A stretch of DNA of 60,033 nucleotides, taken from IMG/VR virus record IMGVR_UViG_3300030104_000540, positions 1 to 60,033 of that record. The stretch is one strand, 5' to 3'. The notes under the pieces were generated by a model. The model searched no databases, was not told the origin of the DNA, and worked only from the letters and a program-made list of their open reading frames with translations. A program made the translations under genes and the position numbers. Of the stretch, positions 1 to 58,802 are shown one piece after another (position 1 is the first letter of the stretch; every line of letters starts with the position of its first letter). The stretch comes from a virus. Lineage: Duplodnaviria > Caudoviricetes.

Positions 1-75
1 GGGGTACGTTACTTATGAGATACGGCATTATCTACGTCTAGCAGCTCCACCTCTAGCATAGCCTTTTTTCTTTTT
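1..75. repeat. 75-bp exact repeat, copy 1 (copy 2 at 56420-56494)
   Basis: Base-by-base identity of 1-75 with 56420-56494; first mismatch at 76 (g) vs 56495 (a). Confidence 0.97.
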
Positions 76-156
76 GCCTATGCCGCCACCCATCATCTTC
101 TTAGGTTTCATTGCTCCTCCACGAGCCATTCCTTTTTTCTTCTTGTGCATTGCCAT
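28..156 (-). CDS. 42-aa Lys/Gly/Met-rich basic peptide (MAMHKKKKGMARGG...YARGGAARRR)
   Basis: Manual translation; TAATG coupling to the next gene; homolog at 56447-56578 with mostly synonymous or conservative changes. Confidence 0.85.
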   Translation of the reverse strand: MAMHKKKKGMARGGAMKPKKMMGGGIGKKKKGYARGGAARRR

Positions 157-160
157 ATTT

Positions 161-565
161 TTATTTCCTTTTATTCATAATTTGTAATCCTTGTTTACCA
201 AACCTGTAACCAAAGGATGCACCAATGCTAATGTATAAACAGTTAGCAAACCAAGAAGGTGTGTTCGCATTTAAGAAATCAAACCCTTCTTTAACATATG
301 GTTGAGTCCAAGGTAGGAAACATCCAACCAATATACCACCAAAAATTATTGTCCAAAATTCATCTTTCCACGAACCTGCCATTTGTGCTGTAAGGCTCTG
401 TTCCATAAGCATAGAAGATGTAGCTTCAGTTTCGTATACTTTAGCTTCAGCTTTAGCACGAGCAACTTTTACTTCTGTCTCTGCTTTTTGTTTTTCCATC
501 TTGCCTTGCAGATAAGTTCCTGCTATATTGGCAATAGGACTTATGAGTGATGATAGTCCTAACAT
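161..565 (-). CDS. Membrane protein, possible holin
   Basis: N-terminal amphipathic segment, coiled coil, two hydrophobic segments after WKDEFWT. Confidence 0.6.
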   Translation of the reverse strand: MLGLSSLISPIANIAGTYLQGKMEKQKAETEVKVARAKAEAKVYETEATSSMLMEQSLTAQMAGSWKDEFWTIIFGGILVGCFLPWTQPYVKEGFDFLNANTPSWFANCLYISIGASFGYRFGKQGLQIMNKRK

Positions 566-819
566 TATGTTTTCCTCGTTGCTTTTCTTTTTCTACCTGA
601 TGCAGTTACAGACCATTTAACTTTCTTAGGTCCTGTTTTCTTTCTTGCTTCTGCTTTACTTATTCTTCCAGCTACAGCTTTAGGTCTACAAGCAGGGTAA
701 GGTCTTTTCTTTTTTTCGCTTCCTGACCTTCCACATTTCTTGCCTGTCTTAACATCTCGCCAATCTTCTTTGAACCATTTAGTTAAGCCACCTGTAGGCT
801 TTCTAGGCATAAGTGCCAC
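565..819 (-). CDS. Basic phage hypothetical protein (GGLTKWFKEDW...YPACRP)
   Basis: ORF in a tightly packed operon; motif typical of marine phage basic proteins. Confidence 0.75.
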   Translation of the reverse strand: MALMPRKPTGGLTKWFKEDWRDVKTGKKCGRSGSEKKKRPYPACRPKAVAGRISKAEARKKTGPKKVKWSVTASGRKRKATRKT

Positions 820-1342
820 CCCTAGCTTTATACGTTTTTACTAGCCATGCATTTGCATATGCTGATGGATATACTTTAAATTTTCTTTTTGCTTCTGCTT
901 TGACTGTAGAGTACAAAGATTTATTTTTAGGAACTGGTCCTGCACCTTTTTTCTTTTTTGTAATAAGTGCTCCGGGTTTAGCTTTAATAACTTTACTTAA
1001 AGTTTTAGCTTGACCTGCGTGAGCTTTACTTGCTTTTGTTAATTTACCTGCAACTTTTTTTATTGTTGACTTTGCTTTTGTTGCAAGTGTTCCTGCTTTA
1101 GCTTTGATGACACCTCTACCTATCAGTATATCTTTTTGTGTAGTCTTGCCGTCTCCACTTAAATCTGGAAAACCACCTCTACTAAAGCCTAAATGTTTCT
1201 GACCTTTTAAGCCTTCTACACCAAACACTTCTATAGCCATCTCTAATACTTTTCTTTTTTGTGTTGCAGTTAAGTTTCCAAATATTCTTGGTTGCTTTGC
1301 CATTCTAGCAGATAATCCTTTTCCTGATCTAGGTTTAGCCAT
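803..1342 (-). CDS. Lys-rich protein with EF-hand-like loop (DLSGDGKTTQKD) and C-terminal YPSAYAN motif
   Basis: ORF with GGAG SD; motifs read from the translation. Confidence 0.75.
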   Translation of the reverse strand: MAKPRSGKGLSARMAKQPRIFGNLTATQKRKVLEMAIEVFGVEGLKGQKHLGFSRGGFPDLSGDGKTTQKDILIGRGVIKAKAGTLATKAKSTIKKVAGKLTKASKAHAGQAKTLSKVIKAKPGALITKKKKGAGPVPKNKSLYSTVKAEAKRKFKVYPSAYANAWLVKTYKARGGTYA

Positions 1343-1353
1343 TTAACATCTCC

Positions 1354-1626
1354 TTACCATTTTACTTTATGTGACCAATACCTTGCACTAAATATATCAG
1401 GCTTGGCATCTTGTGCATTATGACGAGCATAGTAAGATTTCTTACGAGCTTTATCTTTTTTACTTGTAGGATTTTTTCCTGCACCTTTTACTCCTTGTTG
1501 ACCAAAGCGAATAATTTTTTCCTTACCACCCTTACACGCTTTCACTACATGTGATTTTGTAGGATGGTCAGGTGTTCGCTTTGGTTTATTACAAGCCATT
1601 TTAGATTTGTCAAGTTTAGCTGCCAT
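1354..1626 (-). CDS. Basic viral hypothetical protein (IRFGQQG...ARYWS)
   Basis: ORF; recognisable conserved viral motif pattern. Confidence 0.75.
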   Translation of the reverse strand: MAAKLDKSKMACNKPKRTPDHPTKSHVVKACKGGKEKIIRFGQQGVKGAGKNPTSKKDKARKKSYYARHNAQDAKPDIFSARYWSHKVKW

Positions 1627-1628
1627 AA

Positions 1629-1760
1629 CTAACCTTGAATAAATATGTGATAAATAAGTAAAGCTATGATAAGTAATTTACCATAGTCTAAATCAAATTT
1701 AGTACCTTCACCAAATTTCTTTTCCCACATTTCAAATTTAATTTTTTCCCAATCAATCAT
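1629..1760 (-). CDS. 43-aa membrane protein (MIDWEKIK...LLIIALLIYHIFIQG)
   Basis: Manual translation; ATGA overlap with upstream ORF, GGAG SD, fills the gap exactly. Confidence 0.7.
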   Translation of the reverse strand: MIDWEKIKFEMWEKKFGEGTKFDLDYGKLLIIALLIYHIFIQG

Positions 1761-1975
1761 GTTGGTTCTCCCTTAGTTCCTGTAGGGCTACCCATATATA
1801 CACATGTACTGTAACCATTTAAATATTGAGGGTCTTGTATTGTACTTGTTCTTACCTTATCTATATATTGATAGCACGTATCTTGTGATGTAAATGGAAA
1901 ATTTACCATTGGAAAATTTACCCATGTTGCACTATCTCCTAGTGCCCATAATATTGTTATAACCGGAATCCACAT
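1757..1975 (-). CDS. Small exported or membrane protein with two Cys
   Basis: Hydrophobic N-terminus, two Cys, operon context. Confidence 0.65.
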   Translation of the reverse strand: MWIPVITILWALGDSATWVNFPMVNFPFTSQDTCYQYIDKVRTSTIQDPQYLNGYSTCVYMGSPTGTKGEPT

Positions 1976-1978
1976 TTC

Positions 1979-2170
1979 TTAATCACCTTTCTGAGGAATG
2001 CAGTAAACTTTGAGGTAGACTTTATCACCTGCTTGTCTTTGGTGTAAGTCCTGTGCTCGTAGCTTCTGTGCATATCCAAGGCAAGTATCCAAATCATTGA
2101 AGTAGACATTTTCTTGTATCTCTGTTCCTTGTAGTAAGACGACTAACATCCAAACCATAGCTAGTGCCAC
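1979..2170 (-). CDS. Small exported protein with two Cys (C-terminal YCIP)
   Basis: Signal-peptide-like N-terminus; operon context. Confidence 0.65.
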   Translation of the reverse strand: MALAMVWMLVVLLQGTEIQENVYFNDLDTCLGYAQKLRAQDLHQRQAGDKVYLKVYCIPQKGD

Positions 2171-2301
2171 AAATTTGTGAGAGCATAATCATCAGCACAT
2201 CCACATATATCATTTAATAATCCCATTGCTACTGCGTATAATATAATAAATATGAAGAACGCACCTACTAGATATGTTATCCATTTAAATATGAGATACA
2301 T
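2161..2301 (-). CDS. 46-aa membrane peptide (MYLIFKWITYLVGAFF...CGCADD)
   Basis: Manual translation; fills the gap; start overlaps a -10 box so the start is uncertain. Confidence 0.45.
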   Translation of the reverse strand: MYLIFKWITYLVGAFFIFIILYAVAMGLLNDICGCADDYALTNLWH

Positions 2302-2328
2302 TGTACCACTGTATTTTTAAGATGTCAA
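2300..2328 (-). promoter_or_regulatory. Sigma70-type promoter
   Basis: TTGACA-N17-TACAAT on the - strand. Confidence 0.6.
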
Positions 2329-2624
2329 TCACTAAATTGTTTTTTTATACTTCTAACTACACTTTTAATATCAAAAGGTTCTTTATTAGGTCTATATGGA
2401 CATTGATATTGTCTAGGGCAAGGTCCTGCATCATATGGTACATACTCTCTATACTGTGTATTGTTTGCACCTACAAAGACACATACTCTTTGATTGTTCC
2501 CTAGTATCTGACTTGCTAATCTACAAGTCGTCATCTTCACATTGTCTTCTTTTGCTGAAGCAGTTGGAAGTAATAGTAATATTAGTAGGATTAAACTGAC
2601 ATACTTATTAGCCACATCATCCAA
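2325..2624 (-). CDS. Exported protein with four Cys
   Basis: Signal peptide LILLILLLLPTASA; four Cys. Confidence 0.65.
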   Translation of the reverse strand: MDDVANKYVSLILLILLLLPTASAKEDNVKMTTCRLASQILGNNQRVCVFVGANNTQYREYVPYDAGPCPRQYQCPYRPNKEPFDIKSVVRSIKKQFSD

Positions 2625-3070
2625 CCTAAACCACTTACACCTACTAAAGCCGCTAATCCCATAATAGTGTAATCTCTTATCTTACGTTGCTGTTCTTCTT
2701 TTGCGTAGATAGCCTTCTGTCTAGCTTTACGTAATCTACCTTCTTCTCTTAATAAATCATCCCATGCTTGTGTGCCATAGTGAGCTATTAAAAAATTTCT
2801 TAGTTCCTCTCTTTGTTTTTCTAGTTTCTTTTTAGCTGAAAAACTTTCTATTGCTACTTGCTCAATAGACCCATTAAATAATTTATCTAAAGCTGTAGGG
2901 TTATTAGCATTTCTATGTACATTATCTACATCACTAACTGCTGACATCCATTTGCCAAGCTCTGATGATAGGTCTTCAATTTCTTTGCCCACCATTATAG
3001 CTTTTTTTATAGCGTTATATGCTGTAGTCGCACCTGTAACGGCTGCTGACAATGTGATGGGGTCTATCAT
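2591..3070 (-). CDS. Coiled-coil protein with C-terminal TM helix (MIDPITL...)
   Basis: ORF with SD; architecture common in marine phage late regions. Confidence 0.75.
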   Translation of the reverse strand: MIDPITLSAAVTGATTAYNAIKKAIMVGKEIEDLSSELGKWMSAVSDVDNVHRNANNPTALDKLFNGSIEQVAIESFSAKKKLEKQREELRNFLIAHYGTQAWDDLLREEGRLRKARQKAIYAKEEQQRKIRDYTIMGLAALVGVSGLGWMMWLISMSV

Positions 3071-3080
3071 GTAAGCAGTC

Positions 3081-3362
3081 CTACTTAGATTTTTTCAAAT
3101 TATTTGTTACTTTTCCACCTGCAAAATAGTTATGTGGTTTTGCAAAACCTGCACCACCTTTAGCGTACCCTTTTTTCTTTTTAGGCATTCCACCCATAGC
3201 CATTCCTTTTACAGAAATACCAAAGCGTTTAAGTCTTGACAAACCTTCGCTTCTTGTCATGTTACCTGCATTGATTGCATCTCTTACAAAGTTTTTTATA
3301 ATGCCTATTTCTTTTCTTGTAAGTTCGCTAGTAGGCAAATTCATAATATCTCTTTCTGCCAT
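3081..3362 (-). CDS. Basic protein with MAMGG/YAKGG/HNYFAGG motifs
   Basis: C-terminus resembles 57812-58459. Confidence 0.75.
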   Translation of the reverse strand: MAERDIMNLPTSELTRKEIGIIKNFVRDAINAGNMTRSEGLSRLKRFGISVKGMAMGGMPKKKKGYAKGGAGFAKPHNYFAGGKVTNNLKKSK

Positions 3363-3366
3363 GTCC

Positions 3367-4014
3367 TTAACCTCCTCTAAATACTTTTCTAACTTTTAAA
3401 AAGTCACTCACGCTAATGTCTACCTGAGAAAATGCTTTTCTTATTCTTTCTTTGTTCCCAGTATTAATGATAGCCATTAATTTAGTTCTTCTAGCAGGTG
3501 ATATGTCTTGATATTCTCTTTTCATTTTTAATGATAGACCATCTGCACCTTTTTTTGTTGGTAGTTTACTAGGAGCAGTCCTACTCATCTGCGTTTTTTT
3601 AGCAGCGCCCATAGATTGTCCTGTTGTTCCACCTCTTGGTGAGTCTGCACTCTTTGTTTTACCAATAGAACCCTTTGGTCTAGCTGACTGTGAGCCTGAA
3701 CCTGTAATTTTTTTGTCTGCTTTCTTTGGAGCACTTGTCTTCTTTGCTTTTTTTGCTGCAGTTCCCATTGATTTAGCTTTTGTCTTCTTACTAGGTGCTT
3801 TTTCCTGTGTAACTTTTTTACCACCAGCAATAGTTCCCTCACTCTTTGCCATCTTAGTACTTTTTCTAATACGTATAGGCAGATCATAAACCTTTTCACC
3901 TGCTTTTGCCGCAGCTTTTGATTTAGGTTTAACCTGATCGCTGTAACTTTTACCTTTTTTCTTTTTCTTTATCATACTACTGATAAGTTTTTTTACTAAC
4001 TTTGTTGCTGCCAT
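3367..4014 (-). CDS. Lys/Ser/Ala-rich basic protein (histone H1-like composition)
   Basis: GGAG SD; composition; N-terminus resembles 53334-53723. Confidence 0.75.
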   Translation of the reverse strand: MAATKLVKKLISSMIKKKKKGKSYSDQVKPKSKAAAKAGEKVYDLPIRIRKSTKMAKSEGTIAGGKKVTQEKAPSKKTKAKSMGTAAKKAKKTSAPKKADKKITGSGSQSARPKGSIGKTKSADSPRGGTTGQSMGAAKKTQMSRTAPSKLPTKKGADGLSLKMKREYQDISPARRTKLMAIINTGNKERIRKAFSQVDISVSDFLKVRKVFRGG

Positions 4015-4027
4015 TATTTTATACTCC

Positions 4028-4234
4028 CTATTCGTGCCAACCTTCGGCTTTCATGGCATTCTCTACACGAGATAGAGAATAACGCACTCCTGTATCTTTA
4101 TAAATGAGTGCTCTAATGTAATGTACAGAGGAATGAGGTACATGAACTGCACGTAAGTCTCCATATTTACGTAAAGATTTGTACGTGTCTGACAAAATGT
4201 CATCCGTATATGTTAGTTTTACTGATTTTTTCAT
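4028..4234 (-). CDS. First gene of late arm, conserved hypothetical protein (variant A)
   Basis: Homologous to 58459-58668 (MKKSVKL, HxPHS, AMxAEGW). Confidence 0.8.
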   Translation of the reverse strand: MKKSVKLTYTDDILSDTYKSLRKYGDLRAVHVPHSSVHYIRALIYKDTGVRYSLSRVENAMKAEGWHE

Positions 4235-4361
4235 AGATGTCAACTATTATTTTAGTACAGAATGTACATTATACTGTATTACCAAGATTTTTTATACTTA
4301 TAATATGCTACATTTAAGTATTTATTTATTTTTAAAGTGTAACAGTTTAACTGTTATGGTA

Positions 4362-4389
4362 ATTATACTCTTTTTACGCAGCTTGTCAA
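4362..4389 (-). promoter_or_regulatory. Sigma70 promoter driving the late arm (variant A)
   Basis: TTGACA-N16-TATAAT; positional equivalent at 58803-58831. Confidence 0.75.
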
Positions 4390-4484
4390 CCCCAAAACAA
4401 TTAAATAAGTATAATTTTGTAGTATTTAGTGTGGCAATGTTGCAACTGTTGCATACTTGCAACACTATTTAATGGAGTTATCTA

Positions 4485-4553
4485 TGTGGTTACCACTTCA
4501 ATTTCCTAATCTGTGTATTTATACAAGCATACGTACCCCATAGGGTGGCATGG
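4485..4553. other. Conserved non-coding block, candidate genome terminus or packaging site (variant A)
   Basis: TGTGGTT, TTTCCTAATCTGT, ATACGTA and GGGTGGCA(TGG) shared in order with 58876-58954; lies between the divergent arms. Confidence 0.45.
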
Positions 4554-4817
4554 CTGTCGCCCTCCCCCTCAATCGTGGGCAGACGTGTGCATAATGTCCA
4601 GCCACACGCAGGAATTGAGCCGACCAAATGCTCATTCTCTCTGAGAATGAAAGTGCAATCAGACCAAAACCGACCCCTAACACTCAAACGGAGTGTTAAA
4701 GGTGGAGTTGCCGAGCCAAATGACCATCACAAAGTGATGAATTGGCAAAATTGCCGTTCAAACTACGTTTGGGAGTACAAAAAACCATACCCCCTCTTAA
4801 CAGCGAAGCTGTTACAA

Positions 4818-4831
4818 GTCCGATGTCGGAC
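4818..4831. promoter_or_regulatory. Palindrome GTCCGATGTCGGAC, copy 1
   Basis: 6-bp arms, 2-bp centre; six copies in the early region. Confidence 0.85.
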
Positions 4832-4894
4832 AGTCTGCATCATCAGAAACAGATCAATCATAGATAGATTCTCTATCAAAAACTGACGGCAAAA

Positions 4895-5016
4895 TGACTC
4901 CGTTTGAACATTTTTTTATGGTTTCATTTGAAATGTTTTAAGCACCCTGTAACGAAGTGAAGGGTGTTAAAACCTTTCAATTAAATGAAACCAAAAAAAT
5001 GTAACAAACGGAGTCA
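4895..5016 (+). promoter_or_regulatory. 122-nt imperfect hairpin occluding the SD of the first early gene
   Basis: TGACTCCGTTTG (4895-4906) pairs with CAAACGGAGTCA (5005-5016); inner stems TGGTTTCATTT/AAATGAAACCA and CACCCT/AGGGTG. Confidence 0.8.
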
Positions 5017-5019
5017 AAC

Positions 5020-5643
5020 ATGAAAAATTCAACAACAACCACTTCCAAATTAAACAACGGTTTAATTCAAAACTTAGCTAAAGCTAAGTCAAATGCTGAA
5101 AAAGGTTCAATTCTCTCTAGAGAGAATACACGTCTACTGTCTCTTGAAAAGAGACAGTTTGAAGCCCAAACTATGTTTGGAGGTTTTTGGTTTTCACTTG
5201 GAAAGCTCATCTCTGATGAGTTGAATGCAAGTGGAAAGTTGAGACTTTCCACAGCTCAGCTTAAAAAGCTGAATATCACTAAAATTGAACGTCAAAGACG
5301 TTCAGATGCTAAACTTTTCTTTGAAAATTATGATGCTTTACAATCTCTTACAAAGAGATTTAATAACGTATCAGCTTTGCTGAAAGAATTTAATAAACAG
5401 AACTCAAAGAGTTCTGAAACATCTACTAAAGTAGATGAAAAGTCATCTTCTAAAGAAGATGTTAAGTCCGATGTCGGACAAAGTGATAACAACGAAGTTG
5501 TTAAAGTAGGTACTTTTCAAGTACCTAATGTAAAGCAAATGGCTGAAGCCATTGTAATGCAAGCCATTGAAAATGGCTTAGAAGTTAAAGAGCTAAAAGC
5601 TCTTAACGCTGAAATTGCTAACCAAATCAAGGCTTTAGCTTAA
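5020..5643 (+). CDS. First early protein (variant A), putative DNA-binding protein
   Basis: GGAG SD; helical N-domain, S/K/E linker, helical C-domain; remote counterpart of 59273-59917. Confidence 0.75.
   Translation: MKNSTTTTSKLNNGLIQNLAKAKSNAEKGSILSRENTRLLSLEKRQFEAQTMFGGFWFSLGKLISDELNASGKLRLSTAQLKKLNITKIERQRRSDAKLFFENYDALQSLTKRFNNVSALLKEFNKQNSKSSETSTKVDEKSSSKEDVKSDVGQSDNNEVVKVGTFQVPNVKQMAEAIVMQAIENGLEVKELKALNAEIANQIKALA
5466..5479. promoter_or_regulatory. Palindrome GTCCGATGTCGGAC, copy 2 (inside first early gene)
   Basis: Exact copy, read as KSDVGQ. Confidence 0.85.
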
Positions 5644-5649
5644 CCATTA

Positions 5650-5710
5650 CTAACATAGATGTAATACATATTGAATGTATATGAAATATGTATTACATCT
5701 TAAATGTTAG
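5650..5710. other. Long intergenic stem-loop
   Basis: AGATGTAATACATATT/AATATGTATTACATCT 16-bp stem plus CTAACAT/ATGTTAG. Confidence 0.75.
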
Positions 5711-5726
5711 TTAGAAAGGAAAAATT

Positions 5727-6017
5727 ATGAAAATTACATACTGTAAACCTGACCCATTACTTGATCCAAAAAATCGCTCTTACTATGTTATACCTAAGTA
5801 TAACCATAGTAAAGTCCACAAAGACTTTGCTGACTACGTCAGCCAGAAAGTAGACGTAGTCTACGTTAATGGCGAAGCCATTGAGTATGGAACAATGGAT
5901 TACTACGTAAAAGATGTAGTTAGCAATTTCCCTGCTCAGTATGAGCAGTTAGAAGTTAATCAGCAAATGAAAGAATTTGCTCAATATGACACAGGATTTA
6001 GACCTGTTATGAAATAA
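5727..6017 (+). CDS. Early hypothetical protein
   Basis: AGAAAGGA SD; ORF. Confidence 0.7.
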   Translation: MKITYCKPDPLLDPKNRSYYVIPKYNHSKVHKDFADYVSQKVDVVYVNGEAIEYGTMDYYVKDVVSNFPAQYEQLEVNQQMKEFAQYDTGFRPVMK

Positions 6018-6023
6018 CAGTAA

Positions 6024-6037
6024 GTCCGATGTCGGTC
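6024..6037. promoter_or_regulatory. Palindrome copy 3 (GTCCGATGTCGGTC)
   Basis: One mismatch to the consensus. Confidence 0.75.
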
Positions 6038-6045
6038 TTAACAGC

Positions 6046-6078
6046 AAGGCTGTAGCAGTAATGTTACAGCCTTTTTTT
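6046..6078 (+). terminator. Rho-independent terminator
   Basis: AAGGCTGTAGCA-GTAA-TGTTACAGCCTT followed by a T tract. Confidence 0.85.
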
Positions 6079-6101
6079 ATGCCTAAAGAAAGGATACCAT
6101 T

Positions 6102-6305
6102 ATGAGAAATAAATATATACTATCAGTGTATGCAATGTTTGCTTATGCAATGGCTAACATTATCACAGGTTTTTATACATTATCATATGCAAATACCGTT
6201 GTATTTGCTCACATGCAACCATATGATGCGATTGTATGCACGATTAGTGCAATCTTTATTGCATGGGGTACTATGATAATAGGAGTTGTAGTGCTAAAGT
6301 ATTAG
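6102..6305 (+). CDS. Small two-TM membrane protein
   Basis: AAGGA SD; two hydrophobic segments. Confidence 0.65.
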   Translation: MRNKYILSVYAMFAYAMANIITGFYTLSYANTVVFAHMQPYDAIVCTISAIFIAWGTMIIGVVVLKY

Positions 6306-6366
6306 TAATATAACAATAAATAATATATATCTATTTATAGATATATTATTTATTTTATATATTACT
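6304..6366. other. AT-rich long inverted repeat
   Basis: AGTAATATA/TATATTACT outer stem and AATAAATAATATAT/ATATATTATTTATT inner stem. Confidence 0.7.
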
Positions 6367-6372
6367 TATTAA

Positions 6373-6386
6373 GTCCGATGTCGGAC
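6373..6386. promoter_or_regulatory. Palindrome copy 4
   Basis: Exact copy just upstream of the SD of 6406. Confidence 0.85.
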
Positions 6387-6405
6387 ATAAACAGAAAGGG
6401 TTATT

Positions 6406-7047
6406 ATGTTTAATACAGTTAAAGAAGCATGGGCTGAAGTGGGTGGCTTATCCAAGCCATCTAAAATGCCATCATTTGGTTATTCATTAAGTGCATTTAA
6501 ATGCAAGGTAGGTAGTAAGCTGAGGAATATTGCTAACTCTACATGTAGTGATTGCTATGCATTGAAGGGAAGGTATGTCTTCCCCAATGTACAAGAAGCA
6601 TTGGATAGGAGAATGGATAGGCTATTGAACAATCCTAATTGGATTGAAGCTATGTCATTTTTAATCAATCACTATTCCACTAAAGGTGGAGTGTTTAGGT
6701 GGCATGATAGTGGAGATTTACAATCTCTTGATCACCTACAAAAGATTGTAAAAGTTGCTGAGCTTACACCTAGTGTAAGGCATTGGCTACCAACAAGAGA
6801 GGTAGCAATGGTGCGAGATTACCAAAAGCAATACGGAGAGTTTCCTAGCAACTTAGTTGTTAGGATAAGTGCTACTATGATTAATGGTTTACCCCATAAG
6901 TTTCATAGGCATACTAGCACAGTATCAACAGCCAAAGATTTTGATTTGGGTTGGACTTGTCCTGCTAGTAAACAAGGTAACAAGTGTGACACGTGTCGTG
7001 CTTGTTGGGATAGTAATGTTGAAAATATTACTTACCCTTTACATTAA
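6406..7047 (+). CDS. GP88-family protein (Cys-rich, radical-SAM-like)
   Basis: SKMP, C-x11-CSDCYA, FRWHDSGD and C-terminal CxxCxxC motifs. Confidence 0.75.
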   Translation: MFNTVKEAWAEVGGLSKPSKMPSFGYSLSAFKCKVGSKLRNIANSTCSDCYALKGRYVFPNVQEALDRRMDRLLNNPNWIEAMSFLINHYSTKGGVFRWHDSGDLQSLDHLQKIVKVAELTPSVRHWLPTREVAMVRDYQKQYGEFPSNLVVRISATMINGLPHKFHRHTSTVSTAKDFDLGWTCPASKQGNKCDTCRACWDSNVENITYPLH

Positions 7048-7081
7048 GAGTGTTATAGTATATAACATAAACATTAACTAA

Positions 7082-7095
7082 GTCCGATGTCGGAC
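7082..7095. promoter_or_regulatory. Palindrome copy 5
   Basis: Exact copy upstream of an AAGGAG SD. Confidence 0.85.
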
Positions 7096-7117
7096 ATAAT
7101 TGAAAGGAGCATATATT

Positions 7118-7390
7118 ATGTTTTTCTTATATTCGTCTAAATTAACTAACGATAAGATGGGAGTAAGACGTAGTCTTATTCTTGAAATTAATGATGTCAA
7201 AGTTATCAATTTTAAAACTATGACATATTGGAGAAAGAGATTGTTCTCTTACTCTAGAACACTCAACAAGCCTGTGGGCTTTACTCAAGGTGATTGCTTT
7301 AACAGTTATCACTTCTTTAACTTCACATTACATGTGGAGAAAAGAAGAAACAGGCAATCTGTGAGAAAGCTGTGGCACTTCGCAGGTTAA
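7118..7390 (+). CDS. Early hypothetical protein
   Basis: AAGGAG SD before ATG 7118. Confidence 0.7.
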   Translation: MFFLYSSKLTNDKMGVRRSLILEINDVKVINFKTMTYWRKRLFSYSRTLNKPVGFTQGDCFNSYHFFNFTLHVEKRRNRQSVRKLWHFAG

Positions 7391-7394
7391 TGTG

Positions 7395-7550
7395 ATGTCT
7401 AAGATGCGTAACCCTATTGCTAGAATGTTGCACATAGCGACACGCAATAGGGTTATGGGTGTAGACAAAAAGTTTAACAAGAAAAAAGAAAGGCAGAAAA
7501 ATGCAAAGTCAAAACTTAGGAAAGATGCGAGTAAACAAGAAGATGTTTAA
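7395..7550 (+). CDS. 51-aa basic protein (RNPIAR...KKFNKKKER)
   Basis: Manual translation; resembles small basic NPxA phage peptides. Confidence 0.5.
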   Translation: MSKMRNPIARMLHIATRNRVMGVDKKFNKKKERQKNAKSKLRKDASKQEDV

Positions 7551-7641
7551 CAAAGACAAAAGAAAAGAGTACAAGCATAACAGACGTTTACAACGTCAGC
7601 TTAAACAAACAACACAACTAAAAGCATGGAGACAAGCATGA
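7501..7641 (+). CDS. 46-aa basic protein
   Basis: Manual translation; GAAAGG SD; ATGA overlap with the next gene. Confidence 0.5.
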   Translation: MQSQNLGKMRVNKKMFNKDKRKEYKHNRRLQRQLKQTTQLKAWRQA

Positions 7642-14105: not shown

Positions 14106-15319
14106 CACTATTAAGAAGTTTAATGAATAAGAAGTTCTACGATGATCATCGTGGAGCAAGGTGTCCTAACAGATTATTTAGTAAGGATGCACAGAAAGTA
14201 AAGTCTGTTATAGATAAGGCTATGCATAGGTATGAGAGAACTGTAACACCTGATGAAGTAGAAGCATTATTTGTGTCAGGTAATCCTAGTATGACTACAG
14301 CACAGAAGAATGCATACATATCTATGTTCAGACAGGTTAAGAAAGAACAACCAATGGGAGATGATGTAGCACAGGAAGTGTTATCCAAACTTTTCCAACA
14401 GGTTATTGGTGAGGACATTGCTAATCTAGGTTTTGATTATGTGAATGGTGCTAAGAGTTCTTTAGAACCACTACGTAATATACTTGAGCAATATAGTGAT
14501 GACTTCACACCTACTATGAATATTGAGTGGGCTGATATAAGTATTGAAAACCTGCTGGACAAGAATGATCTTGAAGCAAGATGGACATTTAATATACCTA
14601 CACTATGCAGAAAGGTAGAGGGTATCAATGCAGGACATTTAATAGAGGTAGGTGCTAGACCTAATACAGGTAAGACATCTTTCCATGCTAGTCTTATAGC
14701 AGGTCCGGGTGGGTTTGCATCACAGGGTGCTAAGTGTATTGTGCTTTGTAATGAAGAAGGCTTTCATAGAGTAGGTGCAAGGTATCTTACAGCAGGTACA
14801 GGCATGAACCTACACCAAGTTAAGAATGACATGCAGAAAGCTAATGAAATATATGCACCATTGCGTAAGAATATATTTATTAAAGACACTACAGGTTACG
14901 ACATGAGTTGGGTAGAGTCTGCTGTCAAGAAAGAAAGACCTGATATTGTAGTGCTTGATATGGGTGATAAGTTTGCTACACACAAAGGATATGCTAGACC
15001 TGATGAAGCATTGAAAGCATGTGCTGTACATGCAAGACAGATAGCAAAACAATATGATTGTGCTGTGTTATATATGTCACAGTTAAGTGCAGAAGCAGAG
15101 GGTAAGGTTATACTTAATCAAAGTATGATGGAAGGTAGCCGTACAGGTAAAGCTGCAGAAGCAGACTTGATGGTACTCATTGCCAAGAACCCACAGGTAG
15201 AAGGGCAAGAAGAAGAGGATGCACAAAGACATTTAAACATTGTCAAGAATAAATTATCAGGATGGCATGGTAGTGTACACTGCGAGTTAGATTATTTAAT
15301 TGCAAGGTATAACGCATGA
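14096..15319 (+). CDS. Replicative DnaB-like (SF4) helicase
   Basis: ARPNTGKT, NEE, VVLD, SQL, EAD, KNK. Confidence 0.92.
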   Translation: MELALLRSLMNKKFYDDHRGARCPNRLFSKDAQKVKSVIDKAMHRYERTVTPDEVEALFVSGNPSMTTAQKNAYISMFRQVKKEQPMGDDVAQEVLSKLFQQVIGEDIANLGFDYVNGAKSSLEPLRNILEQYSDDFTPTMNIEWADISIENLLDKNDLEARWTFNIPTLCRKVEGINAGHLIEVGARPNTGKTSFHASLIAGPGGFASQGAKCIVLCNEEGFHRVGARYLTAGTGMNLHQVKNDMQKANEIYAPLRKNIFIKDTTGYDMSWVESAVKKERPDIVVLDMGDKFATHKGYARPDEALKACAVHARQIAKQYDCAVLYMSQLSAEAEGKVILNQSMMEGSRTGKAAEADLMVLIAKNPQVEGQEEEDAQRHLNIVKNKLSGWHGSVHCELDYLIARYNA

Positions 15320-15768
15320 GAGATTTATTTGGATTTAAATTAAGGCAAAAACCTGTTGTTGAAGATACATTGGTATGCATTAAATGCAATACAACACAAC
15401 CAATAGATCAATTCAACGCAATGAACTATGCTAGTGATAAACCTTCTGAGATAAAGAGGACATGCAGAACTTGCATGAGAAACCAATCTAACTTAGTTAA
15501 ACAACTAAAGAAAGAGAACCCATATCCTAATGAACATTATAAATGTCCTATATGCGACAGGGATATAGAAGAGATAGGCAAGTATAACCAACCACGATTG
15601 CAGAATTGGGTGTTAGATCATTGCCATGAGACAGGCACGTTCAGAGGGTGGCTATGTCATCACTGTAACGTAGGTCTAGGTGGATTCAAAGATAGCTTGA
15701 CAAGATTAAAAAAAGCTGTAGAATACATGACTAAACATAAGGAGACAGTAAATGAAGATAGTAATTGA
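15316..15768 (+). CDS. Endonuclease VII-like HNH nuclease
   Basis: CPIC, LDHCH..G..RGWLCHHCN. Confidence 0.9.
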   Translation: MRDLFGFKLRQKPVVEDTLVCIKCNTTQPIDQFNAMNYASDKPSEIKRTCRTCMRNQSNLVKQLKKENPYPNEHYKCPICDRDIEEIGKYNQPRLQNWVLDHCHETGTFRGWLCHHCNVGLGGFKDSLTRLKKAVEYMTKHKETVNEDSN

Positions 15769-17807: not shown

Positions 17808-18698
17808 ATGAATATAGATACTAGCTTAAATAAGTTTGCCGATATGGCACAGAAAATGGGTATGGGAGTAGACATAACCCAAAAGAAACAGACAGCACAA
17901 CTTGCTCGTCTTAAAATACAACACTCACCTATCATGGGTGAGGTTGAAGTCAAGGGTAAAAAGACTCAAGCTGCTATAGTCAATGGTGGTTCTTATAGAA
18001 TTGATGACTTAGCAAGTGAGAGTGTATTCTACTCTGACGATGTAACAATCAGACCCTATGTACAAAGATTTATGTACAAGAAGTTTGTCAAGCCTGAGTC
18101 AGGCAAGGGTTTCTACGTTAAGACTATCATGGCAGACAACTTAAATGTTGATCTGAAGGACAACATGGGTGGGTTTAACTGTGGAAAACCAGCAGGTTTT
18201 GTAAAAGATTATCAAGCATTACCTGTAAAGACAAAGGAACTCTTGAAGAGTATTAAAAGAGTGAGGGTACTGATTGGAACACTATCAGCAGGGTCAGTTC
18301 TGAATGCTGATGGTAATGATGTCATGGAGATTGGAGACTTGCCATTTATTTGGGAAGTGGACAACCGAGATGCATTCAAGATTATGGGAGAACCCATATC
18401 TAAAATAGGTGGCAGGAGACATCTTCCTGTGCAGTACAAAATTAAGTTAGGTTCTGAACAACGAAAGTTGCCTAACGGAAATGCGTACTACCTACCTACT
18501 GCAACTTTACAAGACGAAGTGTTGGAAGTAGAAGATAGCACACAAGATCATTTCTCTGACTTTATGCAATGGATTGAGAATTATAACTCTTATATCTTCA
18601 ATGCATGGAATGATAAAGCAAAGCCTGAAGAGCTATCTAAGTCTGATAAAGATGTGGTATCAGAACTTGTTGATGTTGATGATGAAGTACCATTCTAA
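17808..18698 (+). CDS. Putative single-stranded DNA-binding protein
   Basis: Position after polA; acidic tail ending DDEVPF. Confidence 0.7.
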   Translation: MNIDTSLNKFADMAQKMGMGVDITQKKQTAQLARLKIQHSPIMGEVEVKGKKTQAAIVNGGSYRIDDLASESVFYSDDVTIRPYVQRFMYKKFVKPESGKGFYVKTIMADNLNVDLKDNMGGFNCGKPAGFVKDYQALPVKTKELLKSIKRVRVLIGTLSAGSVLNADGNDVMEIGDLPFIWEVDNRDAFKIMGEPISKIGGRRHLPVQYKIKLGSEQRKLPNGNAYYLPTATLQDEVLEVEDSTQDHFSDFMQWIENYNSYIFNAWNDKAKPEELSKSDKDVVSELVDVDDEVPF

Positions 18699-19552
18699 TG
18701 AACTCAGCAGAAGAACTAAAGGTACACAGATACTTAGATAAGGCAGTTAAAGGTACTGCAACAATGAGTGATGACACAATTGAGCAGGTTGTGTCACACA
18801 TACGAGACAGCTTGAAGAAACAATTCTCTCCTCAACAGAAGGACTTTCGTATCAGGATGTCCAACATTGGCAGACCTTACTGTCAACTTTGGTTCTTAAA
18901 AAACAAACCTGATTCACGTATACACCCACCTGCTAAGATGATAATGAATTTTATGATGGGCGATATTGTTGAAGCAGTATTCAAAGGGATACTACGTGAG
19001 TCAGGTGTTAAATACGAAGACGATAATAGTGAAGTGTCTCTAGAAATAGAGGGCAACAGTATTAAAGGAACGTATGATTTATCTATCAATGATTCAGTTG
19101 ATGACATTAAATCTGCATCTATGTGGTCTTACACAAACAAGTTTATATCATTTGATACTATCAAAAACAGTGATCCGTTTGGTTATGTAGGACAACTAGC
19201 AGGTTATGCTAAAGCTGCCAAGAAGAAAGTTGGTGGTTGGTGGGTTATTAATAAGAACAATGCAGAGTTTAAATATATACCTGCTACTACAATGAACCTT
19301 GATGAAGAGATAGGCAAAATTAAAAAGACATTCAAACGTCTTGAAGAAAATAAATTTGAAAGGTGTTATGAAGCAGAAGATGAAACATTCAGAGGTAAAC
19401 ATACAGGTAATAAAGTCCTCAGTAAGAATTGTAACTTTTGTGAGTTTCGTTTTTCATGTTGGACTTCTCTTGTAGAGAAACCACAGATGGCATCAAAGGC
19501 AAAAGAACCTAGGATGATGTCCTATGTTTATGAAAAAAATGTCAGCATATAG
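18698..19552 (+). CDS. PD-(D/E)XK (Cas4/RecB-like) exonuclease
   Basis: RMSNIGRPYCQLW, GTYD, DIKS, QLAGY, CNFCEFRFSC. Confidence 0.88.
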   Translation: MNSAEELKVHRYLDKAVKGTATMSDDTIEQVVSHIRDSLKKQFSPQQKDFRIRMSNIGRPYCQLWFLKNKPDSRIHPPAKMIMNFMMGDIVEAVFKGILRESGVKYEDDNSEVSLEIEGNSIKGTYDLSINDSVDDIKSASMWSYTNKFISFDTIKNSDPFGYVGQLAGYAKAAKKKVGGWWVINKNNAEFKYIPATTMNLDEEIGKIKKTFKRLEENKFERCYEAEDETFRGKHTGNKVLSKNCNFCEFRFSCWTSLVEKPQMASKAKEPRMMSYVYEKNVSI

Positions 19553-19994
19553 TGCTAGACAGATAGCACGAAAGAATGGGTATAGGAGTGGTTTAGAAGA
19601 TACTCTTGCTACTTACCTAAAAGAATTAAAGGTAGCTTTCACATATGAAAAGCTAAAGATAGAATGGGAAGACCTTGCTTATCGCACCTATACCCCTGAT
19701 TTTGTATTAGACAATGGTATAATAATAGAAACCAAGGGAATATTTAATGCTTTGGATAGACGTAAACATAAGGCTATCAAAAAGCAACACCCCAAATTAG
19801 ATATTCGTTTTGTGTTTACAAATAGTAGAAGAAAATTACGTAAAGGTGCAAAGTCCTCTTACGCAGAGTGGTGTATCCGATATGGGTTTCGTTATTGTGA
19901 TAGGGTTGTTCCTGAAGATTGGCTAAAAGAAAAAGGAAAAAGATTAACATTAACATTTATACCTTTTAAAGGTAGAAAAGTAAAAAGGAGTTAA
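19524..19994 (+). CDS. T7 gp3-like endonuclease I (Holliday junction resolvase)
   Basis: YRSGLE, YTPDF, IETKG, DIRFVF. Confidence 0.95.
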   Translation: MFMKKMSAYSARQIARKNGYRSGLEDTLATYLKELKVAFTYEKLKIEWEDLAYRTYTPDFVLDNGIIIETKGIFNALDRRKHKAIKKQHPKLDIRFVFTNSRRKLRKGAKSSYAEWCIRYGFRYCDRVVPEDWLKEKGKRLTLTFIPFKGRKVKRS

Positions 19995-55795: not shown

Positions 55796-56447
55796 AGGTT
55801 ACGCTAGGGTCTAGGTAGCTTTCGTGGCTTTCTGCCGAGTGTGTCCACTGAGATGGTGTAAAGTCTGGAGCACCTTCCCCAGTAGCCCACAACGCAGGGC
55901 TTGTTGCACGGACTCTATTATTAGGTAAAGCAACAAAGTTTCCTGTCCACTTCCCTGCATCTAGCAGATATAATACATGCGACTGTTTATGTTGGGCAGG
56001 ATCATCTGCTATGTCGCTATCTGTGTAGTCCACTGTAAATAAGTATTTACCTTTGTAAAACTCTCCACCGATCTTACAAAGCCAAGGGCTTGAACTTACT
56101 CTATCCATCACGACTACACTGTGATTTCTTGATTCACAATCCCAAGGTTGTGCTAAATGATCTTCCATTGGTTCTGACCATTCATCTAGTGGAATGTCAG
56201 CTACGAGTGCTTGTATTGGCATCCTAGCCCACATTGCTCCACCATGTATATTTGTTTCAGGTCCATCTTCAAAGTCAGCTTCGCAACCTGTGAATACTAG
56301 TTGAAAGCTAAGTGACCTATCAGGTATTGTATTAACTGCAAATACCATCGCATGTAAAAACTCTCCGTGATACTGCTGATGGTTTGACGTAAACTCTTTC
56401 CGTACCCAACAATGAAAATGGGGTACGTTACTTATGAGATACGGCAT
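55749..56447 (-). CDS. Conserved hypothetical protein (GGAMWARMPI, QPWDC, HKQSH, LPNNR)
   Basis: ORF; its first codons recur at 1-28. Confidence 0.85.
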   Translation of the reverse strand: MPYLISNVPHFHCWVRKEFTSNHQQYHGEFLHAMVFAVNTIPDRSLSFQLVFTGCEADFEDGPETNIHGGAMWARMPIQALVADIPLDEWSEPMEDHLAQPWDCESRNHSVVVMDRVSSSPWLCKIGGEFYKGKYLFTVDYTDSDIADDPAQHKQSHVLYLLDAGKWTGNFVALPNNRVRATSPALWATGEGAPDFTPSQWTHSAESHESYLDPSVTFDNLYNDKKQKKKRP

Positions 56448-56494
56448 TATCTACGTCTAGCAGCTCCACCTCTAGCATAGCCTTTTTTCTTTTT
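56420..56494. repeat. 75-bp exact repeat, copy 2
   Basis: Identical to 1-75. Confidence 0.97.
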
Positions 56495-56578
56495 ACCCAT
56501 GCCACCACCCATCATTTTAGGCTTCATAGCACCACCTTTAGCCATACCTTTTTTCTTTTTACCTTTATGCATTGGCAT
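56447..56578 (-). CDS. 43-aa basic peptide (MPMHKGKKKKGMAKGG...YARGGAARRR)
   Basis: Manual translation; AGGAG SD; homolog of 28-156. Confidence 0.85.
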   Translation of the reverse strand: MPMHKGKKKKGMAKGGAMKPKMMGGGMGKKKKGYARGGAARRR

Positions 56579-56592
56579 ATTACATTCTCCTA

Positions 56593-56850
56593 TTATGCTC
56601 TTGATCGAACCTTACCTGCAGTTTTTGTTCTTGCAAAAGATCGGTTTCTTCTTACAGATGAGATACCTAGATTATTCCATCTATTATCTCTTGGATTACC
56701 GTTTCTATGTGTAACATCTTTACCTGTAAGATTTACTCCACGTTTTTTCATAGCGTTACGTGCAGCATTCCGACTATCTCTACGTTTTACTTGTTCAGGT
56801 CTACTGTGATAATTATCATATTCTTTACGGTAATTTCTTTTATAAGCCAT
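56593..56850 (-). CDS. Small HNH-like basic protein
   Basis: RNYRKEY...KDVTHRNGNPRDN...NL...NR. Confidence 0.7.
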   Translation of the reverse strand: MAYKRNYRKEYDNYHSRPEQVKRRDSRNAARNAMKKRGVNLTGKDVTHRNGNPRDNRWNNLGISSVRRNRSFARTKTAGKVRSRA

Positions 56851-57812
56851 TAATTTTTCTTTAGATAGGCTATTAATTCTTTTTTACTTGGTCTTCTACC
56901 TAACTGTTTTTCTAATTTATTTTCAGCATCTATTTCTGCTAGTCTAACTTTTGCTGGACCTTTTCCACCTACTATAAGATTAAACATCCTACCACTACTA
57001 CCCCCATTAGTTTTCTTTTTACCATTAAATAATTTTGGTTTAGGTTTTGGTAGTACTATAGTTACTGAAGATTTAGATTTAGGTTTTGTTTTAGGTTGAG
57101 AGACTTTAGATTTTTTTGTTTTAATTAACTCTTTATCAGACTTTCTTTCTTTTTGACCACCTTTAGTGCTTCTAACTACTATTCCTTCAGTTATTGTGCT
57201 TTTTTCTATTTTAGAAGGTTTTAACGATGCTAATATTGCTCCAATAGCTATACCTATTCCACCTGCTCCTGCAACAGCAGTTAAAGGATGTTTTCTTATC
57301 ATACCTCTTATAGTATCTGTTATCTTTGACATACTTACATTAGGTGCTTTAGCTTTAACTTTTTTAGCTAGGTTGTTTATTTTTTGTTGAACACTTAATG
57401 TTTTAGTTTTAGTTACAGTTTTGGGTTTACCACCTGTAGCACTACCTACTTTAACATTTGGCTTAACACCTATTTTAGTTGTAGTTTTGGATTTACTACC
57501 TGTAGCACTACCTATTTTAGATTTACTACCTGTAGCACTACCTACTTTAACTTTTGTTTTAGTTGTAGTTTTATTTATTTTCATTCCGGGATTATTAGGA
57601 CCTCCGGGTGTTTTACCTAGTCCTGCAACAGATGATTTTTTTACGTTAAGAAGAGAAGTTAGTTTAACTTTGGATAACATATTTTTAGGCACAGCATTTT
57701 GAATTTTAAAATTTTTAATACCTAACCTTCTCATTTCTCCGGTAATCTCAGCTTTTGTTGCTCTTATATATAATGTGCTTCGACCCGGAATAGATACTGG
57801 ATATACTGCCAT
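56850..57812 (-). CDS. Lys/Thr/Ser-rich basic protein with GSATG repeats and one hydrophobic segment
   Basis: TAATG coupling; composition. Confidence 0.7.
   Translation of the reverse strand: MAVYPVSIPGRSTLYIRATKAEITGEMRRLGIKNFKIQNAVPKNMLSKVKLTSLLNVKKSSVAGLGKTPGGPNNPGMKINKTTTKTKVKVGSATGSKSKIGSATGSKSKTTTKIGVKPNVKVGSATGGKPKTVTKTKTLSVQQKINNLAKKVKAKAPNVSMSKITDTIRGMIRKHPLTAVAGAGGIGIAIGAILASLKPSKIEKSTITEGIVVRSTKGGQKERKSDKELIKTKKSKVSQPKTKPKSKSSVTIVLPKPKPKLFNGKKKTNGGSSGRMFNLIVGGKGPAKVRLAEIDAENKLEKQLGRRPSKKELIAYLKKN
57490..57544. repeat. 30-nt-period tandem repeat (K[VI]GSATGSKS)
   Basis: GATTTACTACCTGTAGCACTACCTA at 57490 and 57520; third degenerate copy near 57426. Confidence 0.85.
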
Positions 57813-58459
57813 TATTTACTCCTTGTTATGTTTTTATACGCTTTCATTCCTTTAGGACCACTCTCACGTAATGCTTTTAGTCCGGGATTGTCTGTAACAT
57901 TACCACCTGCTACATACATATGTTTCTTTCCACTTGACATACCACCATATGCCATTTTTTCTACATTCTTTTTAAGAATAGCACCACCTTTATTATTTCC
58001 AAATAGCTCTCCTTGGAACTTATTTTTAACAAATCTAGCACCGATTAAGGCAGCTTCACTTAAAGTTGGTATTTTTCTATCTGATGATCCATATTCACCT
58101 GATCTTAAAAGTTCATCTTTTATATCCTTTAAAGACCTTGCTGCTTCCCTTTTGTATTTATTAGGCTTACTAGGTGGTGCATCGACAGTTTTCTTAGGTG
58201 GATCACCTCTATCTTTTCTATTTAAACTTAGTGCTTGTTGTTTAATAACATCAAGTATTCTTTGTCTTCCACCACCTAGTTTTGTATCACCTACAATTTT
58301 ATCAAGAACTTGATTTAATTTCTTTTTTAAAACATTCTTTCTGCTTTTATTTGCATCATTACTAGGTTCTTCCTCTAATCTATAAAGTTCTGCTTGGGCA
58401 CTAACACCCATTTTCTCTAATTTTTTATCACTTGGTGTAGCTACTTGTTTCTGTGTCAT
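57812..58459 (-). CDS. Basic protein with MAYGG/HMYVAGG motifs
   Basis: C-terminus resembles 3081-3362. Confidence 0.75.
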   Translation of the reverse strand: MTQKQVATPSDKKLEKMGVSAQAELYRLEEEPSNDANKSRKNVLKKKLNQVLDKIVGDTKLGGGRQRILDVIKQQALSLNRKDRGDPPKKTVDAPPSKPNKYKREAARSLKDIKDELLRSGEYGSSDRKIPTLSEAALIGARFVKNKFQGELFGNNKGGAILKKNVEKMAYGGMSSGKKHMYVAGGNVTDNPGLKALRESGPKGMKAYKNITRSK

Positions 58460-58668: not shown

Positions 58669-58802
58669 AAATGTCAAGTAATTATAGTACGTAGGGTTAA
58701 TATTTATTAAAAACCACTTAATATGTACATTTATAGTGTTTTTTATAACTTAATATATTAAACACTTATAGTGTTACACTGTTTGTGTTCTAGTTATACA
58801 TA

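Follow-up and report, generated by a model that had tools for sequence, protein, structure and literature searches.

A hairpin array at the head of an early gene module

We analyzed a viral DNA record of 60,033 bases (IMG/VR record IMGVR_UViG_3300030104_000540; the window, which is the whole record) and found an array of ~35 to 45 short perfect inverted repeats, unrelated in sequence, with stems of 6 to 10 bp and loops mostly 3 nt long. It extends across the leader and first two genes of a rightward early/replication module, and the encoded proteins are not destroyed. As its DNA polymerase is 62 to 63% identical to those of Puniceispirillum phage HMO-2011 and Roseobacter phages CRP-1 and CRP-345, the window represents an HMO-2011-type marine podophage; its G+C content is 36%. 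Genes run leftward from ~4243 and rightward from 5020, and the GC skew flips sign there. The noncoding leader (4632–4877, neither strand assigned) carries six mini-hairpins, starting at 4632, 4678, 4725, 4759, 4798, and 4863, and a separate palindrome at 4818. The first gene, an early gene of 207 amino acids (5020–5643, + strand), carries 21 stems, one of them the palindrome again, at 5466 in the part coding for a linker; the second, of 96 amino acids (5727–6017, + strand), carries seven stems (5787–5962). Downstream, 6021–6073 on the + strand holds a variant of the palindrome (6021) and then a terminator-like hairpin with a T run (6046–6073), followed by a fading tail of the array with 2 to 6 hairpins per 500 nt and palindrome copies at 6373 and 7082 (6100–7600, neither strand assigned).

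Hairpins were counted as perfect stems of at least 6 bp with loops of 2 to 5 nt, with duplicates removed. By this count, positions 4600 to 6080 contain 35 hairpins covering 39% of the bases, whereas 33 control zones of equal length between 8000 and 56000 contain on average 2.4 hairpins (maximum 6) with 2.6% cover; the median start-to-start spacing in the array is 26.5 nt. An earlier note on this DNA, made by a model from the letters alone (hereafter the original prediction), had listed 34 such stems. All 34 hold a perfect Watson–Crick stem of 5 to 10 bp with a loop of 2 to 6 nt, at most 4 nt from the start given, and the sequence GCGAAGC that it placed at 4803 and 5872 is present at both positions, with a further copy at 10090. 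Its description of the stems as mutually unrelated agrees with a position profile over 342 hairpins, where the information content is at most 0.09 bit outside the closing pair and the loop; no conserved base was found flanking the hairpins.

The first gene was compared with recoded versions of itself, a check named beforehand. Against the 20 hairpins that it contains by the above count, 1,000 synonymous-codon shuffles have a mean of 2.09 (SD 1.37, maximum 7) and 1,000 codon-order permutations a mean of 0.77. Since the synonymous shuffles retain more hairpins than the permutations, the amino acid sequence itself is bent toward palindromes. The minimum free energy (MFE) of the gene is far below that of synonymous shuffles both with RNA parameters (z = −9.5) and with DNA parameters (z = −11.7), and the fold energy is equal on the two strands, as are the energies of the hairpins.

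The 207-amino-acid gene is a real protein-coding gene. Its product has 22 database homologs at 62 to 100% identity, with indels of whole codons, and more distant relatives (24 to 37% identity) in 86 loci from viral and metagenome contigs; HMO-2011 gp74 and CRP-1 gp01 are homologs in the same genome position. The second gene is a full-length open reading frame (ORF), with 87 to 100% amino acid identity in nine close loci and partial matches in two more.

Conservation of the array and paired changes

Tiling with hairpins was present in all 86 related loci, each with 10 to 34 hairpins per kb, even at a protein identity as low as 27%; in total, the gene sequences (38,709 nt) contain 839 hairpins, or 21.7 per kb, and the far flanks (126,244 nt) 206, or 1.6 per kb. 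The cultured phages HMO-2011 and CRP-1 have one hairpin hot spot per genome, at the first-gene locus.

Covariation was studied in an alignment of nine close relatives comprising 135 stem pairs. Changes on both sides were found in 25 of these pairs, compared with 12.7 ± 2.1 in shuffles (0 of 500 reached 25) and with 1 to 6 when the partners were slid. The orthologs show such two-sided compensatory changes and not the G–U-rich stems with tetraloops that the original prediction had associated with structure at the RNA level. Paired changes were accepted even where residues alter, for example from LSLEKRQ to LSSERRQ, and whole stems were swapped for unrelated stems at the same place among close relatives. 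Between two deep clades, the density of hairpins was retained.

A second tiled gene was found in mycobacteriophage Patience, where hairpins occupy 38.7–39.5 kb of the 70.5-kb genome. The interval of 38–40 kb contains 27 hairpins, the majority of them in gp47, versus 0 to 6 per kb elsewhere. The gene follows a 400-nt gap and heads the nonstructural genes in the middle of the genome, so that the head of an early module is common to Patience and the window phage and a genome end is not. In both phages, then, an early gene heading nonstructural genes is tiled with perfect mini-hairpins, but the proteins are unrelated: gp47 as a homolog of the 207-amino-acid protein was rejected at an hhalign probability of 0.5%. 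The loops differ as well, being mostly C-GAA-G on the sense strand in Patience and more varied in the window, where the array also fills a 400-nt leader. According to the available text of the Patience paper, the gp47 protein is seen only early in infection, and gene 47, with 62% GC, was read as a possible lateral transfer (PMC4324244); the same text does not mention the words hairpin, palindrome, stem-loop, or inverted repeat.

Border and gradient of the array

The left border of the array is a conserved noncoding block (4485–4545, + strand) with the motif CCTAATCTGT at 4505–4514. Among the loci with at least 700 nt of upstream sequence, the motif was found 377 to 659 nt upstream of the gene match and in one orientation in 60 of 60, including HMO-2011; it is also present in CRP-1. 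We profiled the hairpin density of 21 dereplicated loci anchored on the motif. Upstream of it, the density is 0 to 4 per kb, with about one conserved hairpin just before the motif, and over the conserved block it is 3 per kb. From +100 to +1300, the density rises to 19 to 31 per kb, apart from a dip to ~9 per kb at +400 to +600, where a long inverted repeat sits; it is then 5 to 9 per kb to +2300 and ~2 to 6 per kb beyond. The array thus has a sharp, one-sided start ~100 nt downstream of CCTAATCTGT and fades over ~2.5 kb.

The contig holds two alternative versions of the control region, module A at 1–5760 and module B at 56420–60033. The two match at 1–159 and 56420–56581 (85%) and at 4202–4258 and 58639–58690 (84%), and are elsewhere largely unalignable. 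The motif occurs once in each, at 4505–4514 and 58896–58905. Module B, of which 58876–59917 (+ strand) contains the motif, a different first gene, and a different palindrome, keeps the motif and the G+C-rich block following it; its first gene has 18% identity in an alignment to the A-type gene and only three hairpins in 59231–59917, and the module is more A+T-rich (30% vs. 36% G+C). The contig is probably a circular-type, wrap-around assembly through two strain variants, and if so, the true genome is shorter than the 60,033-base contig. A relative of 56.6 kb (G001) has a 247-nt end overlap, which likewise indicates a circular-type assembly and is uninformative about physical ends.

The 10-nt motif lies inside a block of ~45 nt that is conserved even where the neighboring protein is only 24 to 30% identical (L003–L088), and many metagenome contigs share only this block, seen as a depth peak with loose ends at 4485–4542. 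Candidate roles for the motif in the HMO-2011-type group are those of a terminus, an origin, a packaging site, and a special promoter. After it follows a G+C-rich, poorly conserved stretch (4520–4640, also in relatives) with a TGGC..GCC core and GCATAATGC-type hairpins and with no match in Rfam. A switch from TNC to GNA loops (N, any base) across the motif was considered, with eight TNC and no GNA loops in the bin before the motif; the numbers are small and we do not rely on it. The four metagenome runs compared consist of contigs and show no starts or ends of molecules, and in one of them (X20) cover is absent at 4840–6983; the runs are uninformative about expression and termini.

Pairing rules and loop types

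Structures that are selected as RNA would be expected to tolerate G:U pairs on the transcribed sense, and we compared the pairing of the stems on both strands. At stem ends, G:T (75 cases) was not in excess over A:C (68 cases; P = 0.62), and among 62 hairpins with one mismatch, 14 had G:T, 6 had A:C, and 42 had others, near the expectation from composition. These counts bear out the original observation that the stems are almost free of G–T pairs. In local MFE helices of 23 genes, G:U made up 193 of 3,065 pairs on the + strand versus 182 of 3,014 on the − strand.

Triloops were the commonest loops (343 of 755 hairpins) and outnumbered tetraloops, whereas the loop-length distribution was flat in the far flanks. 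Stems of 6, 7, 8, 9, 10, and 12 bp were found in 395, 251, 82, 18, 7, and 2 hairpins, respectively. The triloops were closed by C–G in 197 cases versus G–C in 13, and the loops named in the original prediction were indeed frequent: GAA was found 64 times, AAA 51, and GTA 15, along with 19 GGA and 12 GCA. GNA accounted for 110 of the 343 triloops on the + strand, and GNA loops are found on either strand. In the noncoding leaders of the related loci, triloops likewise dominate, closing pairs are C–G in 39 cases versus G–C in 4, and GNA and TNC, with 22 each, make up 44 of 80 triloops. Because the biases of loops and closing pairs are also found in noncoding leaders, and because triloops fall in all three codon phases (83, 41, and 72), they are not codon effects.

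Such loops have a known chemistry. In the available text of a 2026 review (PMC13037366), only GNA triloops give DNA mini-hairpins, with stability in the order A > G > C > T, and the RNA counterpart melts at 39 °C versus 76.5 °C for the DNA form. The same source describes poor binding of the mini-hairpins by single-stranded DNA-binding protein (SSB) and their resistance to nucleases, and lists them at the origins of G4, St-1, and alpha3, at ssiA of RSF1010, and at the early promoters of N4 (PMC13037366).

The long inverted repeat between the leader hairpins and the first gene (4895–5016, − strand) provides a contrast. It has ~51 pairs, and the GGAG preceding the ATG at 5020 lies within its 3′ arm on the + strand; its fold energy is −56.3 kcal/mol (z = −9.65). 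The repeat was present in 23 of 23 loci tested. In the window, none of its 51 pairs is G:U, and across the 23 loci, stacked G:U in the long helices numbered 2 of 734 pairs on the + strand versus 23 of 768 on the − strand, the loci being related and the independent events accordingly fewer. The repeat differs in kind from the mini-hairpins, since wobble is tolerated almost only when it is folded as the − strand. This pattern speaks against a lock on the mRNA and favors folding of either the template DNA strand or an antisense RNA. The repeat contains no promoter boxes that we could find. As the long repeat shows one-strand wobble, the test can see single-strand folding, and the two-strand symmetry of the mini-hairpins is therefore informative.

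The stems of the array look like DNA structure and not like mRNA, with pairing rules that are those of DNA on both strands. Their symmetry fits cruciform-like structures on both strands and equally fits copying between the arms. The original prediction had proposed selection on DNA structure at the presumed first-injected end of the genome. The first half of this stands, in that a DNA-type structure is selected or at least maintained, given stems that are Watson–Crick-only and strand-symmetric with C–G-closed GNA triloops; the second half, discussed below, is not supported.

The same observations bear on the possibility that the hairpins function in RNA, armoring or dosing the first early mRNA, with the symmetry of the DNA as a by-product. 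They could then protect it from RNases or Rho, slow down ribosomes, or prevent backtracking of RNA polymerase. The array lies in an apparent single transcription unit, from the motif to the terminator-like hairpin at 6046–6073, its first gene folds far more stably as RNA than the shuffles do (z = −9.5), GNA loops on the sense strand dominate its coding parts, and in Patience the gp47 protein is made early only (PMC4324244). An RNA function would, however, predict an excess of G:U over A:C, which is seen neither at stem ends nor inside stems, and tetraloops of the GNRA or UNCG type, in place of which triloops dominate. The noncoding leaders contain as many TNC as GNA loops, the mini-hairpin is far less stable as RNA than as DNA (PMC13037366), and the array goes on at lower density beyond the terminator-like site. 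No Rfam family was found either, the only matches being to microRNA-precursor models far below gathering scores and all at the long inverted repeat (4892–5019). On balance, we consider a function at the RNA level unlikely.

A putative start zone for early events

We tentatively interpret the array as mini-hairpins or mini-cruciforms acting at the DNA level, which together would form a structured start zone where the early/replication module begins, and give this interpretation, whose functional part we infer, slightly less than an even chance. Under it, the repeats would work, or arise, as DNA, with mini-hairpins on both strands forming mini-cruciforms. Extrusion would accompany opening or underwinding of the duplex where the module begins, in the way of N4 promoters under negative supercoiling. 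The array might then serve as a start zone for replication or early events, in which the hairpins would hold the duplex open, keep SSB and single-strand nucleases off, or give the phage primase and DnaB-like helicase their points of entry. A role as a supercoil sink or as sites for the junction nucleases of the phage is about as compatible with the data. We regard the start-zone role as the most likely because mini-hairpins are otherwise known from initiation sites and exclude SSB, and because the array precedes the primase and helicase genes with a distance-dependent decay.

Several observations weigh against a start zone acting as DNA. Extrusion of stems of 6 to 8 bp in cells has N4 as its known case, and for the array DNA an extruded or single-stranded state would have to be supposed. 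The hairpins are individually weak, with a mean DNA energy of −4.3 kcal/mol at 37 °C (range −8.4 to −1.3), and as RNA folding lies so far below the shuffles, an effect on the mRNA must exist too. In coding parts, GNA loops favor the sense strand (45 vs. 9 in the gene and 36 vs. 12 downstream, with a coding-strand background of 82 vs. 35), which could mean that one strand is the functional one. The lack of a conserved flanking base argues against a sequence-specific site for a primase or polymerase. The GC skew gives no independent sign of an origin, as it follows gene direction in the window, and in Patience it does not change at gp47. Hairpin positions shared between the two deep clades (9 of 22, with ~6.9 expected) were not significantly enriched. 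Finally, module B has the motif and only three hairpins; the array thus goes with the A-type gene and is not indispensable there.

The paired changes raise a further point of this kind: two-sided changes can arise in one step through template switching in a hairpin and are thus no proof of selection. It is conceivable that the array has no function of its own and that the region is often single-stranded, with template switching perfecting and repairing chance quasi-palindromes within the tolerance of the protein. This would explain the perfect, Watson–Crick-only pairing, the two-sided changes with few one-sided intermediates, the preference for the most stable types of DNA loop, the turnover of hairpin positions at a constant density, and the ability of module B to do without hairpins, and palindromes in coding sequence are known elsewhere (PMC6649704). 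A drive alone leaves unexplained why there is one array site per genome, with a sharp border at a conserved motif. It also sits badly with a density of 10 to 34 per kb in every one of the 86 loci, with the recurrence of the array on an unrelated gene of an unrelated phage (Patience gp47), and with paired changes being tolerated even when conserved residues alter. We find this explanation distinctly unlikely.

The preferred start zone also differs from the version put forward in the original prediction, in which the array lies at the leading, first-injected end of the genome and, while single-stranded, shields it from host nucleases and sensors or decoys them. The one-sided gradient from a single-copy motif that may be a terminus or packaging site would suit such a shield, as would the nuclease resistance of mini-hairpins (PMC13037366). 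Hairpin-forming palindromes in single-stranded DNA are known to trigger Lamassu/DdmABC (PMC11707656), which can be set on the side of this version as well; being triggers of a defense system, however, they would be a cost and not a shield. The placement at a first-injected end is not supported: the contig is of circular type with two versions of the module, no physical end could be read, the tiled gene of Patience lies mid-genome, and module B carries no array. We rate this version as improbable.

It is highly improbable that the hairpins are N4-type recognition sites, serving as promoters or priming sites for a hairpin-reading phage polymerase or primase, as there are at least 35 copies inside ORFs versus three in N4, no base beside or in the stems is conserved, the 1154-amino-acid protein of the virion module has no match to solved structures or PHROGs, and the GNA loops of the coding parts, lying on the sense strand, would as template give antisense RNA. 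The points in its favor are the shared physical form with N4 early promoters (stem of 5 to 7 bp and GGA or GAA triloop; PMC13037366), the failure to find a rightward sigma-70-like promoter in 4000–6300, and three large virion-module proteins without a known family (the proteins of 1154, 787, and 561 amino acids match no PHROG family, and the first has no sequence match to solved structures).

A wider form of the start-zone interpretation is that hairpin tiling of the first early gene represents a general, undescribed class of cis-element in phages, found independently in HMO-2011-type podophages and Patience, in which supercoil-gated mini-cruciforms mark and open the site of early events and dictate the amino acid sequence. 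The early events could be the start of replication, the entry of helicase and primase, or a topological switch from early to late. We regard this generalization as possible but rather doubtful.

Whatever its role, the array puts one stretch of DNA under two codes, and the structural one has enough force to alter conserved residues in a real protein. As palindrome hairpins are reported to trigger DdmABC/Lamassu (PMC11707656), the array is a potential liability, which argues that it pays for itself. HMO-2011-type phages have been described as dominant in marine viromes (PMC9038755), and the element is therefore very abundant in nature; the hosts given in database host fields are SAR116, Roseobacter, and SAR11. 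If the hairpins work as DNA, they would point to an undescribed step in podophage infection in which the DNA heading the early module is opened or underwound, and the system of Patience and Mycobacterium smegmatis makes this directly testable. Hairpin-tiled genes break the assumption that synonymous sites are free, inflate local GC, as in Patience gene 47 with 62% (PMC4324244), and are likely breakpoints in metagenome assemblies.

Palindrome repeats, neighboring genes, and gene products

The sole repeated sequence shared within the locus, separate from the mini-hairpins, is the 14-nt palindrome GTCCGA-NN-TCGGAC, with five exact copies in the window. These lie at 4818 and 5466, both in the form GTCCGA-TG-TCGGAC, and at 6373, 7082, and 9047, in addition to the variant at 6021. 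Palindromes were located at 60, 1260, 53877, and 54807 in HMO-2011 and at 429, 1059, 2227, and 53808 in CRP-1. Such repeats of 14 to 18 nt stand at gene borders and within the linker-coding part of the first gene. Their sequence differs by clade (GTCCGA..TCGGAC, GTCCG-ACAG-CGGAC, or GTCCAA..TTGGAC), and module B has GGTTAGA-AAT-TCTAACC. The palindrome thus changes in step with the first protein, as would be expected of a binding site and the protein that binds it.

The AlphaFold model of the 207-amino-acid protein has a helical N-domain (predicted local distance difference test [pLDDT] 80 to 94), a disordered acidic linker at residues 131–168, and, at the C terminus, a small pair of helices. 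Neither it nor the product of the second gene (5727–6017) matched a Pfam or PHROG family, and a Foldseek search of the model against the Protein Data Bank returned nothing at an E of 0.001 or better. Two candidate assignments were rejected: DUF3102, an Atlas lead on 29% of one cluster with 157 shared features, found no confirmation in Pfam scans of 24 members, and in VIA-align, where the best Z was 6.0, the similarity to the KorB DNA-binding domain (Z 5.7, root-mean-square deviation 3.1, 86 residues) is within the noise for helical models. In 12 of 19 homologs from clade 2 (e.g., L010, L011, L014, and L076), the protein ends in an acidic stretch followed by EV[VI]PF, a tail that the window protein does not have. 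A similar tail, DDDIPF, serves bacterial SSB in recruiting replication and repair proteins.

Farther along the rightward arm are genes for a GP88-family protein, a C5 methylase, a primase, a DnaB-like helicase, an endonuclease VII-like protein, and Pol A, as well as a Cas4-type exonuclease, a T7-endonuclease-I-like protein, and ribonucleotide reductase. The endonuclease VII-like and T7 endonuclease I-like proteins, both junction-cutting nucleases, and the Cas4-type exonuclease are encoded at 15316–15768, 18698–19552, and 19524–19994; they could act on extruded hairpins or on ends. On the leftward side, a perfect sigma-70 consensus promoter (TTGACA, 16 nt, TATAAT) is located at 4389–4362 on the − strand, and a second sigma-70-like promoter with 10 of 12 matches lies at 4408–4437, entered on the same strand. 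A DNA search of 4400–6300 against 50,697 phage records gave no match.

Comparison with known systems

The original prediction knew of no description of such an array, and we found none in the literature. Nothing was found on HMO-2011 together with hairpins, and nothing relevant on coding palindromes in phages or on early genes with short inverted repeats; the principal comparative study of the HMO-2011-type group contains no structure or promoter terms among those looked for. Hairpin-tiled early genes thus seem to be undescribed.

A parallel in form is phage N4, in which three hairpin early promoters, read by the virion RNA polymerase, are extruded from the supercoiled duplex. Like hairpins of the array, they have a short stem and a 3-nt GGA or GAA loop with C–G closure, are DNA-level, and stand at the start of an early region (PMC13037366). 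Unlike the array, they are few, have conserved bases, and lie upstream of genes; the array consists of 35 to 45 unrelated sequences without a conserved flank, mostly inside ORFs, and no virion polymerase was recognized in the phage.

The origins of G4, St-1, and alpha3 and ssiA of RSF1010 have GNA or GNNA DNA mini-hairpins where primases start (PMC13037366). The array resembles these single-strand initiation sites in its enrichment for C-GNA-G triloops, also in noncoding sequence, and in heading a module with a primase and a helicase. Those sites belong to single-stranded replicons, where one hairpin or a few lie in noncoding DNA on one strand, whereas the array is long, belongs to a double-stranded phage, is strand-symmetric, and overlaps genes, and its symmetry points to no single template strand.

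In conjugative plasmids, the leading region carries single-strand promoters of the Frpo type and ssi sites. Each of these is one long, imperfect hairpin with promoter boxes that acts in single-stranded DNA ahead of early genes, in the part that enters first. The long inverted repeat at 4895–5016, which folds best as the template (−) strand, resembles this type more than the mini-hairpins do, but no promoter boxes were found in it, and single-stranded entry is not known for the phage.

Mobile palindromic repeats of the REP/RPE type share their sequence, and the stems of the array do not, apart from the separate palindrome GTCCGA-NN-TCGGAC. Coding palindromes of the Nematomorpha type are like the array in being perfect inverted repeats within protein-coding genes, with both arms coding and a compromise between protein and structure. 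They are long (up to 284 bp) and mitochondrial, however, whereas the array has stems of 6 to 10 bp with triloops, spaced by ~26 nt, at a single phage locus.

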